Source: a virus
UHGV virus genome: UHGV-0147509
Strand: one strand, 5' to 3'
Length of the DNA: 39,944 nt
A model generated the notes under the pieces. It did no database searches. It was not told the DNA's origin and worked only from the letters and a program-made list of their open reading frames with translations. Position numbers and translations under genes: made by a program. This document shows, in pieces, positions 1,886 through 26,480 of this stretch. How positions within the stretch are numbered: position 1 is the stretch's first letter; each line of letters opens with the position of its first letter.

Positions 1886-2122
1886 TTATTTCCCTAGCAC
1901 ATGAAACAATGTTTGCTTTAATTCCACCCATACAATTATGACCACTATAGACAGACAAAAGAAACTGAATGCATTGGCATCACGATCGAAACCTTCTCCG
2001 GCACTAAATCCGTAAAAGGTCATAAAAAATATAAAAATTGCGCACTTTGCAACGTTTACAAATTTTTTCTTCACACCAACCTCCTTAGTTTTCCTAGCAG
2101 TGGCACTGAGTGAATGGAACAA
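1886..2122 (-). CDS. hypothetical small membrane protein (two predicted hydrophobic helices)
   Basis: 78-aa ORF with TTG start and no clear SD; hydrophobic stretches AIFIFFMTFYGF and FFCLSIVVIIVWV; AT-rich; last ORF of the minus-strand cassette downstream of mnt. Confidence 0.35.
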   Translation of the reverse strand: MFHSLSATARKTKEVGVKKKFVNVAKCAIFIFFMTFYGFSAGEGFDRDANAFSFFCLSIVVIIVWVELKQTLFHVLGK

Positions 2123-2143
2123 GAAGATAGCTGATGAGGTGAG

Positions 2144-2593
2144 CTAAAATATATATTTAGCTATCCCTAAAAGAGCAAATCCAGTCCCTATGGTCCATAG
2201 TATTTGCTTGTTTACTGCAGTAGAGATCAATGTCTGGACTTCGCTCTTACTCGGTTTTTTTGATAATTTTTCGTCTACATCTACTATTTTTTGCAGGACC
2301 ACCGCAACATCTCTGGATGTATCAGCTGAGATATCACGCAAACGAGAGATGTCAGACCTTGCCTCAGATAGATTGGTCTTAATGTTTTCAACATCTGCCT
2401 CTAACCGTGCAACCCTAGCCTCAAGCATGTTGTTACTCCCAGCTCCACCACCACTTGATTGTAGCATGCCCATATTCATGCCAGACATTCCTGATGACTG
2501 AGAAATTGGATTTGTGTACAAAGATGATGATTTTTCCGCTTGTTCAAGCTTTTCAGTTAGATTTGGAGCTTCGTAATAATCGTGTTTCATCAT
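2144..2593 (-). CDS. hypothetical tail-anchored coiled-coil membrane protein (XhlA-like architecture)
   Basis: 149-aa ORF, ATG start 3 nt after the upstream stop; Gly/Ser/Met-rich low-complexity segment, heptad-like LEARVARLEADVENIKTNL region, C-terminal hydrophobic helix ILWTIGTGFALLGIAKYIF; AT-rich. Confidence 0.6.
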   Translation of the reverse strand: MMKHDYYEAPNLTEKLEQAEKSSSLYTNPISQSSGMSGMNMGMLQSSGGGAGSNNMLEARVARLEADVENIKTNLSEARSDISRLRDISADTSRDVAVVLQKIVDVDEKLSKKPSKSEVQTLISTAVNKQILWTIGTGFALLGIAKYIF

Positions 2594-2596
2594 TGA

Positions 2597-2866
2597 TTAC
2601 GACTCGTTTGTTTTAGCCTTATAATGTTGGTCGCGAATGAAGTCCGCCAATTTAAGCATCAATTCTTCAGGCATTCTAATGGTGGCAATATTGTACTTTA
2701 TGTTTTCAACATCACCGCTTTCATCAACAGGCCATTCAGTTACATTATGAAAAAAAGAAATTGAACCTAATCGCTGGGAACCGTCACCAAATGAAGAGTA
2801 TCCAAATGAGTCAGCATATGCATCGACACAGTTATTTGATTTTTTAACAAGCTCTTTATTACTCAT
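2597..2866 (-). CDS. hypothetical protein
   Basis: ORF 2597..2881; internal ATG at 2866 gives an 8-nt overlap with the mnt stop (ATG at 2881 would overlap mnt by 23 nt); tightly packed with mnt and the downstream ORF. Confidence 0.5.
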   Translation of the reverse strand: MSNKELVKKSNNCVDAYADSFGYSSFGDGSQRLGSISFFHNVTEWPVDESGDVENIKYNIATIRMPEELMLKLADFIRDQHYKAKTNES

Positions 2867-3116
2867 TCTTTTCTTTTCCATAAAGTTTTTTTAAAGTTTC
2901 GAATACCATATTTTTTACGATATCCGAATGTTCATCAGCCAAGCGTTCAGCTTCGTTGCGATAGCCTGCAATCGGTGATGGCTTTGAGAGAGCATCCTGA
3001 ACGATTTGTAATAACTCAGAGTTCATTGACCTTCCGTTAGCCTCGGCTCTTAATTTCAATTTTTCTCTTACTTCCAAAGGCATACGGAAGTTAAAGTGCG
3101 GATCATCTCTAGCCAT
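2859..3116 (-). CDS. mnt: Mnt repressor (ribbon-helix-helix, immI maintenance repressor)
   Basis: 85-aa protein MARDDPHFNFRMPLEVREKLKLRAEANGRSMNSELLQIVQDAL closely matches recalled P22 Mnt; divergent from arc across the Pant/Omnt region. Confidence 0.9.
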   Translation of the reverse strand: MARDDPHFNFRMPLEVREKLKLRAEANGRSMNSELLQIVQDALSKPSPIAGYRNEAERLADEHSDIVKNMVFETLKKLYGKEKNE

Positions 3117-3138: not shown

Positions 3139-3190
3139 TTGACATGATAGAAGCACTCTACTATATTCTCAATAGGTCCACGGTGGACCT
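3139..3190. promoter_or_regulatory. Pant promoter with Arc operator and Mnt operator (immI control region)
   Basis: TTGACA at 3139-3144, 17-bp spacer, TATATT at 3162-3167; ATGATAGAAGCACTCTACTAT at 3144-3164 matches the recalled P22 arc operator; perfect palindrome AGGTCCACGGTGGACCT at 3174-3190 matches the recalled mnt operator. Confidence 0.8.
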
Positions 3191-3206
3191 ATATTGTGAG
3201 GTGAAC

Positions 3207-3365
3207 ATGAAAGGAATGAGCAAAATGCCGCAGTTCAATTTGCGGTGGCCTAAAGAAGTATTGGATTTGGTGCGCAAGGTAGCTGAAGAGAACGGGCGAT
3301 CTGTTAACTCTGAGATTTACAAGCGGGTGCTGGACAGCCTGAAGAGAGAGGGGATAACGGTATGA
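3207..3365 (+). CDS. arc: Arc repressor
   Basis: MKGMSKMPQFNLRWPKEVLDLVRKVAEENGRSVNSEIY is near-identical to recalled P22 Arc; the ORF-track start at 3144 lies inside the Pant/operator region and is rejected. Confidence 0.95.
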   Translation: MKGMSKMPQFNLRWPKEVLDLVRKVAEENGRSVNSEIYKRVLDSLKREGITV

Positions 3366-3631
3366 AGGTGTCATTGCTTGATCGTTCTTTACAATTTTTG
3401 TCTGGCGCAATCATTGTAGTTTGCTTGCTCGTGATTTTTACATCGTTAATCAATATGTATCAATCAGGGGAACGATTGACAAAGACGATAGAGGAAAAGA
3501 AATCAGTCTCAAATTACGAGGTATCACATGCACATAACGATTTAGTAGAAAGCCTTGACCGTATTAACAAGAGGCTTGACGAGACAAATATGCTACTTAA
3601 GCAAATTCAAAATGAAGTGGAAAAACGTTGA
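3362..3631 (+). CDS. hypothetical membrane/coiled-coil protein inserted between arc and ant
   Basis: 89-aa ORF; ATG overlaps the arc stop (ATGA); purine-rich SD-like run upstream; N-terminal hydrophobic helix [15 protein letters not shown] followed by a charged coiled-coil-like region; AT-rich. Confidence 0.6.
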
Positions 3632-3661
3632 AGCCCCAACTGCGGGAACAGTCAGGGCTTC
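3630..3661 (-). terminator. stem-loop with U-run on the minus strand (candidate terminator of an antisense sar-like RNA)
   Basis: GAAGCCC at 3630-3636 pairs with GGGCTTC at 3655-3661; on the minus strand the stem is followed by AACGTTTTT; lies just upstream of the ant ribosome-binding site. Confidence 0.35.
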
Positions 3662-3693
3662 GGTATCAACAAATCGGATTAGGAAATATTGAC

Positions 3694-4572: not shown

Positions 4573-4590
4573 CAGAGAACCAACGCAACG

Positions 4591-4614
4591 ACCCAGCTTC
4601 GGCTGGGTTTTTTT
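4591..4614 (+). terminator. rho-independent terminator after ant
   Basis: ACCCAGC-TTCG-GCTGGGT hairpin followed by TTTTTTT. Confidence 0.8.
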
Positions 4615-4672: not shown

Positions 4673-6661
4673 ATGACAGACATTACAGCCAATGTTGTAG
4701 TGAGCATGCCTTCGCAACTCTTCACTATGGCTCGTTCTTTTAAAGCTGTAGCTAATGGCAAAATTTATATCGGTAAAATTGACACTGACCCGGTAAATCC
4801 TGAAAACCAGATTCAGGTTTATGTGGAGAACGAAGACGGTTCTCACGTTCCTGTTGCACAGCCAATCATCATTAACGCCGCTGGTTATCCTGTATATAAC
4901 GGACAGATTGCCAAATTCGTTACCGTGCAAGGCCATTCTATGGCTGTTTATGATGCGTATGGGGCGCAGCAGTTCTATTTTCCGAATGTGCTAAAGTATG
5001 ACCCGGATCAGTTAAGAACCGAACTATCTATTAACGGTGGTGCCGGATTAGTTGGCGCAGGAGTTATATCTAGAGGTAATGATAAGTTTTCAATAATGCA
5101 GGGCAGGACATCAGAGTATTTAAATGATGGTCTTACATACGGTATTGGTATCATTATTAATGATTCAATTGTTGGTTCTGTTCCTAATGCAAGCACAGCT
5201 AAAATAAACTATATCATGATTAATGATGACAGAATTAATGCTGTTGATGACCAATCGGCAGGCACAAAAGTTGACGGGTTTTTAGTTCACCATAATTTCG
5301 GATATCAAGAAGCAAAAGGTGGCAGACACGCCGGAGAGTTTGTTTTAACTCACGAAGCAGCCACAAACTTAGAAAATCCTGATAGAAATTATGTTGGTGT
5401 TGTTGGTCTTGCGGTTTCACAAAATGGTGATGGTGGAACGATATCATCATTACCTGGTACATTCAAAGGAGCATATTTTGGCGGAAATATGTATGGACGC
5501 CTGGATTCTGCTGCGGTTGGAGTTTATAACGTTACAGGGTGTGAGTTTAATGTTTCCGCGTTAGTAGGTTCATCTGTATGGTATCGATCAGGTATTCAGA
5601 TTGTCGGTGGTGGTGATGTTCGAGGTACTGCTGTAGATACTGGTATTGCCTTATCAAACCTTTCTACTTCAACCGTTCGCTGGAAAAACGCTATTCGCAT
5701 AGGCAACATGAATGGGGGGCACGCCCTAGGAGGAGATAGTAAAATACTTGTTGCATTTACAGATGTGCCATCCATAACATCAGGATTCGAGATACCAAAA
5801 TGCTCATCAATGATATTGATGTCAGGTGACGTTACTTTACAAAATAGTAAATTGAATATCGCATCTGTTGGCTCATCTATTGAACTTGGTAGTACAACAG
5901 ATTCCGGTGTTTCATATATTGACTTTCACTCAAGCGGAAATAATGTTGATAACGATGGAAGGATTTTCTGTTCTGGTGGTTCTGAAGATTCTGGTGATGG
6001 GACTATTGGATTTAATTCTTCAATCATTCAACTTAACTCAAAAACAGAAATAGTCATGGGGTCTGGCATTAGACCATCTCTTGACAACACCTATGATTAT
6101 GGAACAGCTTCCAAAAGAGGAAGAACAGCGTATTTTGGTACCGGGTCAATTAATACATCTGACTCTCGCCATAAACCAATCAAAGAAAAAATACCAGAAT
6201 ATATTCTTGACGCGTGGTCAGAAGTAGACTGGGGGACATGGTTTAAATTTGATGACGCAATAGCGATAAAAGGAGAAGATGGTGCGAGATGGCACTTTGG
6301 ACTGATTGCGCAGCGTGTTGAAAAAGTTTTTTCATCACATGGAATAGATGGATTTAAGCTTGGCTTGCTATGTTATGACTCATGGGATGACGTTTACGTT
6401 GATGTGCAGACAAATATAGGGGAGGTGGTAAAAAAAACAAGAGAAACGAGCGATGGAAATACAGAAGAATATACTGAACCTGCCCCTGCAAAATTTAAAA
6501 AGGTTCTTGATACACCAGCTGGTGAAAGATACGGAATTCGTTATGAGGAGGCCTTGTCTCTCGAGGCTGCATTACAACGGCGTAACTACTTTCGTTTGCT
6601 GGAGAAACAAAAAGAGTTAGTTATGCGTATTGAGAAAATAGAGGGTATACTTGGAATGTAA
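4673..6661 (+). CDS. tailspike protein (P22 gp9-like head-binding N-terminus, divergent receptor domain, C-terminal intramolecular chaperone-like domain)
   Basis: N-terminus [43 protein letters not shown] closely matches recalled P22 gp9 head-binding domain; C-terminal region with SDSRHK motif resembles peptidase S74 auto-cleaving chaperone domains; SD GGAG upstream. Confidence 0.85.
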
Positions 6662-25586: not shown

Positions 25587-26046
25587 TCAACGTAAGGCGT
25601 TCCTCGATATGCTGGCGTGGTCAGAGGGAACTGATAATGGACGTCAGAAAACCAGGAATCATGGTTATGACGTCATTGTAGGCGGAGAGCTATTCACTGA
25701 TTACTCCGATCACCCTCGCAAACTTGTCACGCTAAACCCCAAACTCAAATCAACAGCAGCCGGACGTTACCAGCTTCTTTCCCGTTGGTGGGATGCCTAT
25801 CGTAAGCAGCTTGGCCTGAAAGACTTCTCTCCGAAAAGCCAGGACGCTGTGGCACTGCAACAGATTAAAGAGCGTGGCGCTTTACCGATGATTGATCGCG
25901 GTGATATCCGTCAGGCAATCGACCGTTGCAGCAATATCTGGGCTTCACTGCCGGGGGCTGGTTACGGTCAGTTCGAGCATAAGGTTGACAGCCTGATTGC
26001 AAAATTCAAAGAAGCTGGCGGAACGGTCAGAGAGATTGAGGTATGA
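25570..26046 (+). CDS. R: endolysin R (lambda-type lytic transglycosylase)
   Basis: 158-aa protein [24 protein letters not shown] matching recalled lambda R; overlaps the S stop. Confidence 0.9.
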
Positions 26047-26480
26047 GCAGAGTCACTGCGATTATCTCCGCTCTGGTTATCTGCATCATCGTCTGCCTGT
26101 CATGGGCTGTTAATCATTACCGTGATAACGCCATGACCTACAAAGAGCAGCGCGATAAAGCCACATCCATCATCGCTGATATGCAGAAGCGGCAACATGA
26201 TGTAGCAGAACTCGACGCCAGATACACAAAGGAGCTTGCTGATGCTAACGCGACTATCGAAAGTCTCCGTGCTGATGTTTCTGCTGGTCGTAAACGCCTG
26301 CAAGTCGCCGCCACCTGTGCAAAGTCAACGACCGGAGCCAGCAGCATGGGCGATGGAGAAAGCCCAAGACTTACAGCAGATGCTGAACTCAATTATTACC
26401 GTCTCCGAAGTGGAATCGACAGGATAACCGCGCAGGTTAACTACTTGCAGGAGTACATCAGGACGCAATGCCTTCGATGA
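26043..26480 (+). CDS. Rz: i-spanin Rz
   Basis: N-terminus [30 protein letters not shown] matches recalled lambda Rz; N-terminal TM plus coiled coil. Confidence 0.85.
26236..26427 (+). CDS. Rz1: o-spanin Rz1 embedded in the +1 frame of Rz
   Basis: 63-aa ORF wholly inside Rz; lipoprotein-like N-terminus with lipobox-type Cys (LVVNAC) and a Pro-rich segment. Confidence 0.75.

Follow-up and report, generated by a model that had tools for sequence, protein, structure and literature searches.

Comparative sequence evidence for a polymorphic cargo slot between arc and sar in P22-type immI regions and for ORF89, a predicted membrane-protein gene, as one of its rarer alleles

UHGV virus genome UHGV-0147509, a stretch of 39,944 nucleotides (nt) referred to below as the window, represents a P22-like (Lederbergvirus-type) prophage or phage genome. 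In its secondary immunity region immI, an open reading frame (ORF) of 89 codons, here named ORF89, is located between the repressor gene arc and the antirepressor gene ant. Comparison with related loci indicates that the junction between arc and the antisense RNA gene sar is a polymorphic cargo slot, of which ORF89 is one of the rarer alleles and not a one-off insertion. ORF89 itself is, judged from its conservation, a genuine and uncharacterised small membrane-protein gene. As the best explanation of the whole we regard, with a probability of about 0.5, a coupled third cistron encoding a bitopic membrane protein as cargo, which would act in trans at the cell envelope.

The immI region of phage P22 is a textbook circuit consisting of two ribbon-helix-helix repressors, an antisense RNA and an antirepressor, and it is usually drawn with two cistrons. 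Its layout (mnt, Pant/Pmnt, arc, sar, ant) was reportedly described by Sauer and colleagues in 1983 and is annotated in BK000583. The window shares with it mnt, the first ~40 arc codons, the promoter/operator block, sar with its terminator, a Psar-like promoter in the start of ant, the terminator after ant and the location between gene 16 and the tailspike gene; it differs by the extra coupled cistron, another arc C-terminus, an ant with a Bro-N domain and the lack of a sieA homologue. Apart from ORF89, an earlier note on this DNA had called the region P22-type, which holds for the operators, mnt and arc codons 1-40, but not for the C-terminus of arc and the N-terminal domain of ant. Nucleotide identity to P22 amounted to ~92% over the 5' end of mnt, the promoter/operator region and most of arc. 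As in P22-type immI regions, the genes of the ribbon-helix-helix proteins Arc and Mnt diverge from overlapping promoters Pant and Pmnt with their operators; both promoters were identical to those of P22, and the stretch from promoter to ATG differed at two bases only, both outside the annotated operators. The neighbours of the region are a gene encoding a gene-16-type ejection protein (3-1868) and the tailspike gene (4673-6661), an interval that was termed 'ant moron' by Villafane et al. (PMC2629481).

Arc codons 1-40 were P22-like, whereas the alignment showed a C-terminus different from MESFKKEGRIGA of P22. In P22-type immI regions no gene separates the arc stop codon from the sar terminator; in the window, 267 nt of coding sequence lie between them. 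The ATG of ORF89 overlaps the arc TGA as ATGA (4-nt overlap), exactly as the earlier note had described, and a Shine-Dalgarno-like (SD-like) sequence GAGAGGGG within the last arc codons ends 8-9 nt upstream of this ATG. The TGA of ORF89 is the TGA of TTGAAGCCCC, located at the base of the sar terminator hairpin. Scanning the plus strand revealed no promoter-like site between Pant and the ORF89 start, which leaves Pant as the only upstream candidate, and a fold test revealed no plus-strand terminator between ORF89 and ant.

The stem-loop between ORF89 and ant had been proposed to be the terminator of a sar-like RNA with its U-run on the minus strand, and this proposal was confirmed by both folding and family assignment. 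Folded as minus-strand RNA, the hairpin reached -30.6 kcal/mol (z = -5.8); as plus-strand RNA it was weaker, with G-U pairs lost (z = -1.5), an asymmetry expected for a minus-strand terminator. The sar gene matched Rfam RF00262 over its full length with E = 2e-13, its score (Table 1) exceeding the gathering cut-off of 43; sar was also detected in four further ORF89-bearing loci. In the window it reaches to within 1 nt of the ant ATG (3694) and, as in P22-type immI regions, runs convergently over the ant ribosome-binding site. The positions of the Psar-like promoter and of sar with its terminator agree with annotated P22. The encoded Ant combines an N-terminal Bro-N domain with P22AR_C, in contrast to P22-type Ant proteins (P22_AR_N plus P22_AR_C); ant genes of the P22_AR_N type were present at other ORF89 loci. 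Altogether, at least four different ant N-termini were found downstream of the same sar terminator in ORF89-bearing loci.

The insertion borders were determined by aligning filled loci with empty ones, namely those of P22, of Kapi1 and of two E. coli prophages in which ant is nearly identical to that of the window. The right border coincided exactly with the sar terminator (TTGAAGCCCC), while the left border was located inside arc; the earlier note had placed the insertion exactly between arc and the ant control region, a statement that applies to the right border and not to the left. The exchanged module begins ~33 nt before the arc stop, from about codon 41, and the last ~12 arc codons, which differ from P22, belong to it. 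In filled loci arc ends with DSLKREG(V/I)xV and the stop codon, whereas empty loci show ESFKKEGRIGA and stop or other endings. Escherichia phage EC.P3 and Salmonella phage S.Kent 1-2-1 possess a quite different arc (MEKEISKILVRMPQS...), yet the same arc C-terminus and the same ORF89.

The left junction was conserved over ~33 nt in 11 representative loci comprising at least four arc types and six cargo types. Its consensus is GAYAGCYTGAAG.G.GA.GGGG....GGT(A/G)TGA, and identity collapsed immediately after (A/G)TGA. At the right junction, the cargos all end with K-S, K-R or K-I because the A-tract, which on the other strand forms the U-run of the sar terminator, supplies their last codons. In all 43 distinct cargo contexts examined (43/43), arc ended with LKREG..V and stop, the overlap was 4 nt and the cargo stopped at the same TGA with the same offset from the hairpin. 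The distance from the cargo stop to the ant ATG was 62-63 nt in 9/9 filled loci and 62 nt in the window. Likewise, arc of the cargo-free Kapi1 (L002, arc 2346-2510) stops at the same TGA inside TTGAAGCCCC, and in P22 the arc TAA precedes TTGAAGCCCC by 2 nt. These regions seem in general to have an upstream ORF whose end falls at the foot of the sar-target hairpin.

A scan of IMG/VR with the 16-nt sar-terminator sequence TTGAAGCCCCAACTGC yielded at least 120 loci, 101 of which could be analysed; a few of these were chance matches outside immI and were set aside. Among the matches listed, the ORF ending at the terminator was arc in about two thirds of the 101 loci and another small ORF in 31 (~30%). 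These small ORFs comprised a 67-aa (amino acid) protein with the pattern CxxC...CxxC (19 loci), ORF89 (5 loci), Cys-rich relatives of 74 aa (3 loci) and 63 aa (1 locus) and two unrelated proteins of 80 aa (2 loci) and 57 aa (1 locus). At least five unrelated small cargo ORFs share identical junctions. They are AT-rich (36-40% GC compared to 46.7% in the window) and 174-270 nt long; one arc type was found with different cargos and one cargo with different arc types.

Of 5,426 complete E. coli genomes, 373 carried the 67-aa Cys-rich ORF, which is the most frequent cargo. The UTI89 RefSeq record lists no coding sequence for it. In CUS-3 (CP000711) the whole interval from arc through the cargo to sar is labelled 'bsq2; boundary sequence', and both arc and the 67-aa ORF are unannotated. 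CUS-3 was said to apparently lack arc (PMC2629481), a remark that is probably explained by this labelling. A profile built from the 67-, 63- and 74-aa Cys-rich cargos had its best PDB match with the N-terminal zinc finger of ClpX (E = 0.004); Pfam matches to zf-C4_ClpX remained below threshold, and the sequence evidence for a ClpX-type zinc finger is weak. The AlphaFold2 model of the 67-aa protein reached a predicted local distance difference test score (pLDDT) of 41, too poor for a fold search. In three IMG/VR loci (L073, L094, L119), the 67-aa cargo is disrupted by an early frameshift (MSKECCFLRH and stop), indicating that cargo decay occurs in the slot too. Furthermore, a 112-aa protein (P0013) was observed in which an Arc domain and the 67-aa cargo are fused in one frame, probably as a result of a frameshift or an assembly artefact. 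No published description was found, in literature that was incompletely accessible, of the slot as a conserved, translationally coupled site with an unannotated commonest allele, and the arc-to-sar slot is absent from the discussion in the SieA paper.

ORF89 was examined as a gene. The probability of 89 stop-free codons arising by chance at this composition is ~8e-4, with a GC content of 36% as compared to 46.7% for the window. Residues 1-89 matched positions 1-89 of the profile PHROG 27312, a family of unknown function, with E = 6.5e-61. RefSeq entry WP_001555392 (hypothetical protein) is ORF89, and a 100% identical coding sequence is annotated in E. coli 503440. The earlier note had raised the possibility of a conserved, characterised immI component: ORF89 proved to be conserved and catalogued, but not characterised. 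No paper on WP_001555392 was found in the incompletely accessible literature.

Near-identical copies were detected by tblastn (E ≤ 0.01) in two of 50,697 phage records, namely EC.P3, an isolated phage, and S.Kent 1-2-1. They also occurred in 13 IMG/VR contigs and in 14 of 5,426 complete E. coli genomes, about 1,000 of which carry a matching immI region. The comparison of immI regions suggested earlier was carried out, and ORF89 was absent from P22 and from most of these ~1,000 E. coli loci. Word-indexed searches of 5.8 billion proteins and an exhaustive HMMER search of 1.84 billion representatives resulted in a family of ~12 clusters, all located in immI; a scan of one genome per species returned no match to the family. 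One variant (P0003) shows 91% identity. Homologues of 83 aa with 44-54% identity were identified by exhaustive HMMER and profile searches in P22-like prophages of E. coli, Salmonella and Serratia, one of them in Serratia marcescens. These homologues occupy five further contexts, all with the order arc-(4-nt overlap)-ORF-sar-ant. The overlap is ATGA in the homologues and GTGA in one locus (L017), the stop is the TGA of TTGAAGCCCC, and the SD-like G-run is kept in all lineages. ORF89 was found together with at least three arc types and at least four ant types.

The reading frame is open in homologues down to 44% identity, also across an in-frame indel of 7 codons. Comparison of the window with the 91% variant (L011) revealed 7 synonymous and 8 mostly conservative non-synonymous changes, corresponding to a ratio of non-synonymous to synonymous substitution rates (dN/dS) of 0.29. 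Between the 89-aa and 83-aa types, dN/dS of codons 1-45 was 0.26-0.29; values for ORF89 ranged from 0.29 to 0.56, and the informative comparisons gave 0.26-0.33. Two minus-strand ORFs (3304-3453 and 3189-3410) were considered as alternatives and received no support, as the conservation pattern tracks the plus frame. An internal start at Met32, which would yield a soluble product of 58 aa, was ruled out because codons 1-45 are the most conserved part. In a 94-aa database protein (P0004), ORF89 residues 29-89 are joined to an acidic N-terminus of unrelated sequence, probably because of a frameshift or an assembly artefact.

The earlier note had predicted an N-terminal transmembrane helix and a coiled coil, and both survived tests by insertion energy, heptad pattern and AlphaFold2 modelling. 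Residues 12-30 gave a summed Hessa insertion energy of -3.25 kcal/mol and a mean Kyte-Doolittle hydropathy of 2.79; the energies of the corresponding segments in homologues were between -3.98 and 0.0. With this single hydrophobic helix of 19 residues and favourable energy, the product is predicted to be a bitopic inner-membrane protein. The motif LSGAIIV was invariant in 5/5 aligned variants. In the juxtamembrane motif, S35, G36, R38, L39, I43 and E44 were invariant down to 44% overall identity, with SG(E/D)RL..IE across five variants. Among the C-terminal 45 residues, L, I, V or M occupied 62-73% of the heptad a/d positions as compared to 27-32% overall. The dN/dS of the coiled coil was 0.9-1.2 between the 89-aa and 83-aa types and 0.27 within the 83-aa type.

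AlphaFold2 modelled residues 5-88 as a single continuous helix with a mean pLDDT of 80. Foldseek searches of this model against the PDB gave 0 matches, and a profile search of the PDB retrieved designed coiled coils only; the predicted structure adds no functional lead. Pfam, NCBIfam and PADLOC reported nothing above threshold for ORF89 and two homologues. PADLOC returned 0 families for these three family members and blastp no match to P22 SieA; given the great diversity of exclusion proteins, these negative results carry no information on function. A lipoprotein or a cleavable signal peptide was rejected: P0009 and P0011 have Ser in place of Cys21, which is therefore not conserved, and inspection revealed no lipobox, no AxA site and an overlong hydrophobic stretch. 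The flanks of the helix carry 2-3 K+R on the N side and 2 on the C side; these charges weakly favour an N-in/C-out topology with a putative periplasmic coiled coil.

Mnt represses arc and ant, and sar blocks the ant mRNA (PMC11016777). The gene 16-gene 9 'ant moron' interval undergoes rapid gene flux; in P22 it includes sieA, and late transcription passes through it to reach the tailspike gene (PMC2629481). Within this framework, transcription of ORF89 would start at Pant, and its translation would be coupled to that of arc via the ATGA overlap and the SD-like sequence in the last arc codons; given this coupling, it should be made whenever Arc is made. Its synthesis would occur in a short burst after DNA entry, before Arc shuts off Pant, and probably again late by read-through of the late operon towards the tailspike gene, and it would be off in a Mnt-repressed lysogen. 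Since sar covers only the last two ORF89 codons and not its ribosome-binding site, ORF89, unlike ant, should not be silenced by sar. The product would be small and bitopic, anchored in the inner membrane by one helix behind a short N-terminus, with a coiled coil of ~30 residues that probably oligomerises. Since the same junctions accommodate unrelated cargos, and P22 manages with none at all, a contribution of the cargo to ant control is improbable; the fixed junctions may instead keep the ant control region in the same geometry for any insert. Conservation at the protein level argues for a trans-acting product, which would act at the cell envelope during the infection burst.

The least certain step is the role of this product. 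Tentatively, we regard early superinfection exclusion, a block of incoming DNA or another form of envelope protection as most likely. In timing such a function would recall T4 Imm and T5 Llp, in genomic location P22 SieA. Several features hint in this direction: the membrane part is conserved, in contrast to a putative periplasmic domain that changes rapidly from lineage to lineage, the gene lies near ejection-protein genes in the interval that holds sieA in P22, the phage of the window lacks a sieA homologue, and ORF89 is AT-rich like acquired accessory genes. Other observations weigh against a coupled membrane cargo acting at the envelope. Expression from Pant implies none in an established lysogen, where classical exclusion genes such as sieA act. 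The other cargos look soluble, and the slot as such therefore gives no hint of an envelope role, and the topology is a guess from charge bias (K+R 2-3 vs 2). No similarity of ORF89 to any characterised protein was detected by Pfam, NCBIfam, PADLOC or PDB sequence and fold searches. The family is rare, as seen from the 14 of 5,426 E. coli genomes. Finally, several assemblies (P0005, P0007, P0008) contain frameshifted variants of 60 aa ending with ...EEKNQSQITKYHMHITI, which means that ORF89 can be lost or truncated and is dispensable or decaying. These variants could reflect sequencing error, decay or slippage-prone expression. The A-rich run GAGGAAAAGAAATC is located at 3494-3506 in the window and at about 4133-4146 in L006; in APEC O2-211, a synonymous change extends the A-run to A8.

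Alternatively, ORF89 might be a transient inhibitor of cell division or envelope growth like Icd of phage P1 or gp56 of SPO1, buying time for the lysis-lysogeny decision, which we consider unlikely but the main rival reading. The Pant burst has a fitting timing, a transmembrane helix plus coiled coil in ~85 aa resembles the FtsB/FtsL class of divisome proteins, and the conserved part of ORF89 consists of the transmembrane helix and the juxtamembrane motif. A near-neutral coiled coil with a 7-residue indel is, however, unexpected for pairing with the conserved FtsB/FtsL zipper. Icd, a protein of 73 aa encoded in the c4-icd-ant operon, blocks Z-ring formation by binding FtsZ (PMC11897509, PMC8198154). 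The operon logic of P1 is alike, with a regulator, a small ORF and an antirepressor controlled by antisense RNA (PMC11897509, PMC8198154). As in P1 and P7 immI, the small ORF lies directly upstream of an antirepressor gene held down by antisense RNA; in P1 this RNA is located upstream in the same transcript, whereas it is convergent in P22-type immI. Icd, which acts on host FtsZ and not on a repressor (PMC11897509, PMC8198154) and is reported to bind FtsZ directly, differs from ORF89 with its predicted transmembrane helix; the word 'transmembrane' was not found in PMC11897509. P1 icd has also been reported to influence ant expression. No sequence similarity between ORF89 and Icd was detectable, and the tblastn search of 50,697 phage records, P1 presumably included, returned the two near-identical copies only. 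The computed evidence does not firmly discriminate between exclusion and a division block, of which we rate exclusion somewhat higher.

An improbable reading is that the protein is incidental and that coupled translation ending at the sar-target hairpin, or the 267 bp added between convergent Pant and Psar, tunes ant and sar in cis. The fixed geometry of the junctions, with an (A/G)TGA start and a stop at the TGA of TTGAAGCCCC for every cargo, would fit it, as would the arc stops of Kapi1 and P22 at or 2 nt before the same site and the accommodation of unrelated cargos. A mere spacer would not experience purifying selection on the protein (dN/dS ~0.3, with LSGAIIV and SGxRL invariant at 44% identity); moreover, cargo lengths of 174-270 nt keep no fixed spacing, and P22 and ~1,000 E. 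coli prophages have immI without any cargo ORF. A function in lysis, as an i-spanin-like, holin/antiholin or XhlA-like membrane protein produced late through read-through from the late operon, is very improbable. Late transcripts do traverse the region (PMC2629481), a type II membrane anchor with a periplasmic coiled coil is the layout of an i-spanin, and sub-threshold echoes were obtained for Rz-like spanin phrog_214 (E = 0.048), DUF948 (E = 0.015) and DUF1664 (E = 0.009). These echoes are far below the family cut-offs (DUF1664 16.5 bits, cut-off 34.6; DUF948 15.9 bits, cut-off 37.2), so that ORF89 was not assigned to XhlA, DUF948 or DUF1664, and it gave no Pfam match to the Rz i-spanin family (PF03245). 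The phage has its own Rz at the lysis-gene position (26043-26480; Pfam Phage_lysis, 124 bits), and ORF89 never occurred in a lysis cassette, all contexts being arc-ORF-sar-ant; no o-spanin partner frame was seen, though none was searched for. The least credible suggestion regards ORF89 as a decaying or non-functional hitch-hiker or a spurious ORF without selected function. Its rarity (1.4% of the immI-bearing E. coli genomes), the 60-aa variants frameshifted at the A-run and one close pair (L014 vs L015) with a dN/dS of ~1, on 10 changes only, speak for it. The frame, start overlap, SD-like sequence and stop are nevertheless kept over a synonymous divergence (dS) of ~0.7 and across three genera, with a dN/dS of 0.26-0.33 in the informative comparisons, and the chance of such an ORF is ~8e-4.

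Among small phage proteins, T4 Imm, which has two membrane segments, and the lipoprotein T5 Llp are exclusion proteins made early, and SPO1 gp56 is a bitopic divisome inhibitor. ORF89 would resemble these three in size class, membrane anchoring and early expression; no homology was found. ORF89 also resembles the 'ant moron' genes, which are variable, AT-rich, located in the gene 16-gene 9 interval and exchanged among P22-like phages of different hosts (PMC2629481), but is embedded in the arc-ant operon and not an independent transcription unit. P22 sieA, located in this interval, encodes an inner-membrane exclusion protein expressed by the prophage, whereas ORF89 is expected to be off in lysogens. 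In the sense of Juhala and Hendrix, ORF89 is an extra gene of atypical composition (absent from P22; 36% vs 46.7% GC); with neither a promoter nor a terminator of its own, it does not qualify as a classical moron. The slot is further similar to the lambdoid boundary sequences (bsq1/bsq2, CUS-3) in that short conserved stretches flank exchangeable modules. Unlike these, its flanks can be explained functionally, by the arc C-terminus, SD-like sequence and coupled start on one side and the sar terminator on the other, and the interval holds coding sequence.

The comparisons suggest that a sizeable minority of natural immI regions contains a third coupled cistron at one fixed position with an exchangeable occupant. 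ORF89 was already catalogued as a hypothetical protein; new are its recognition as one allele of a slot and the unannotated state of the commonest allele. More speculatively, and we would rather bet against it, the slot delivers unrelated small effectors, swapped among phages of Escherichia, Salmonella and Serratia, in the brief Arc/Ant burst at the lysis-lysogeny decision. ORF89 and the Cys-rich cargos would then be host-directed counterparts of Icd, aimed at the envelope or divisome or at ClpX, and neither passengers nor conversion genes. If the cargos indeed act on the host in the burst after infection, as P1 Icd does, they would represent an untapped set of phage effectors whose expression context is known and easy to manipulate. 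Should they have no measurable effect, the junctions would still be a clean natural example of recombination at constrained boundaries shuffling operon genes. For ORF89 itself, a rare accessory gene for a predicted membrane protein, the stakes are modest.

Table 1. Features of the immI region in the window and positions of the 67-aa cargo in other loci (numbered within each locus)
Feature	Position	Strand	Evidence or remark
Three small ORFs downstream of mnt	1886-2881	-	in place of P22 sieA/orf59a
mnt repressor gene, 85 aa	2859-3116	-	Pfam Arc 95.8 bits, Repressor_Mnt 59.2 bits
Pant (TTGACA-17-TATATT)	3139-3167	+	promoter scan
Pmnt, divergent from and overlapping Pant	3172-3144	-	promoter scan
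Arc operator	3144-3164		identical to site annotated in P22 BK000583
Mnt operator	3168-3190		identical to site annotated in P22 BK000583
arc repressor gene, 52 aa	3207-3365	+	Pfam Arc 91.9 bits
Left junction of the slot (arc 3' end DSLKREGxxV and stop, SD-like GAGAGGGG, overlapping ATGA)	3333-3365	+	comparison of loci
ORF89, predicted third cistron of the Pant operon, 89 aa	3362-3631	+	phrog_27312, syntenic homologues, dN/dS
Predicted transmembrane helix, residues 12-30	3395-3451	+	Hessa energy, hydropathy, AlphaFold2 helix
Juxtamembrane motif, residues 35-46 (SGERLTxTIE)	3464-3499	+	alignment, dN/dS
Predicted C-terminal coiled coil, ~residues 58-88	3533-3625	+	heptads, PDB matches, pLDDT 89-94
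Right junction of the slot (A-tract and TGA inside TTGAAGCCCC)	3620-3641		cargo contexts aligned at hairpin
sar antisense RNA gene	3626-3692	-	Rfam RF00262, full length, 67.8 bits
sar terminator hairpin	3630-3661	-	perfect 14-bp stem followed by AACGUUUUUC
ant antirepressor gene, 292 aa	3694-4572	+	Pfam P22_AR_C 103.5 bits, Bro-N 72.2 bits; phrog_245
Psar-like promoter in first ant codons (GTGAAA-17-TATACT, extended TG)	3728-3700	-	promoter scan
Intrinsic terminator after ant (8-bp GC-rich stem, then TTTTTTT)	4590-4609	+	scan; position as in P22
67-aa Cys-rich cargo, L039	3495-3698	-	
67-aa Cys-rich cargo, L152 (UTI89)	2001-2204		
67-aa Cys-rich cargo, L151 (CUS-3)	2501-2701		

Homologues of P22 sieA and orf59a were searched for in the whole window by tblastn (E ≤ 10), and only noise was obtained. 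The three minus-strand ORFs found in their place are probably expressed in the prophage from Pmnt and could be the exclusion genes which this phage expresses in the lysogen. One of them, of 94 aa and overlapping the 3' end of mnt, belongs to phrog_4231. The second, of 149 aa (phrog_3556), combines a coiled coil with a C-terminal hydrophobic helix and shows weak hemolysin/XhlA-like echoes; the third, of 62-78 aa, is hydrophobic. The tailspike consists of a P22 head-binding domain (residues 1-113) and a C-terminal Peptidase_S74 intramolecular-chaperone domain of the endosialidase type (496-557).

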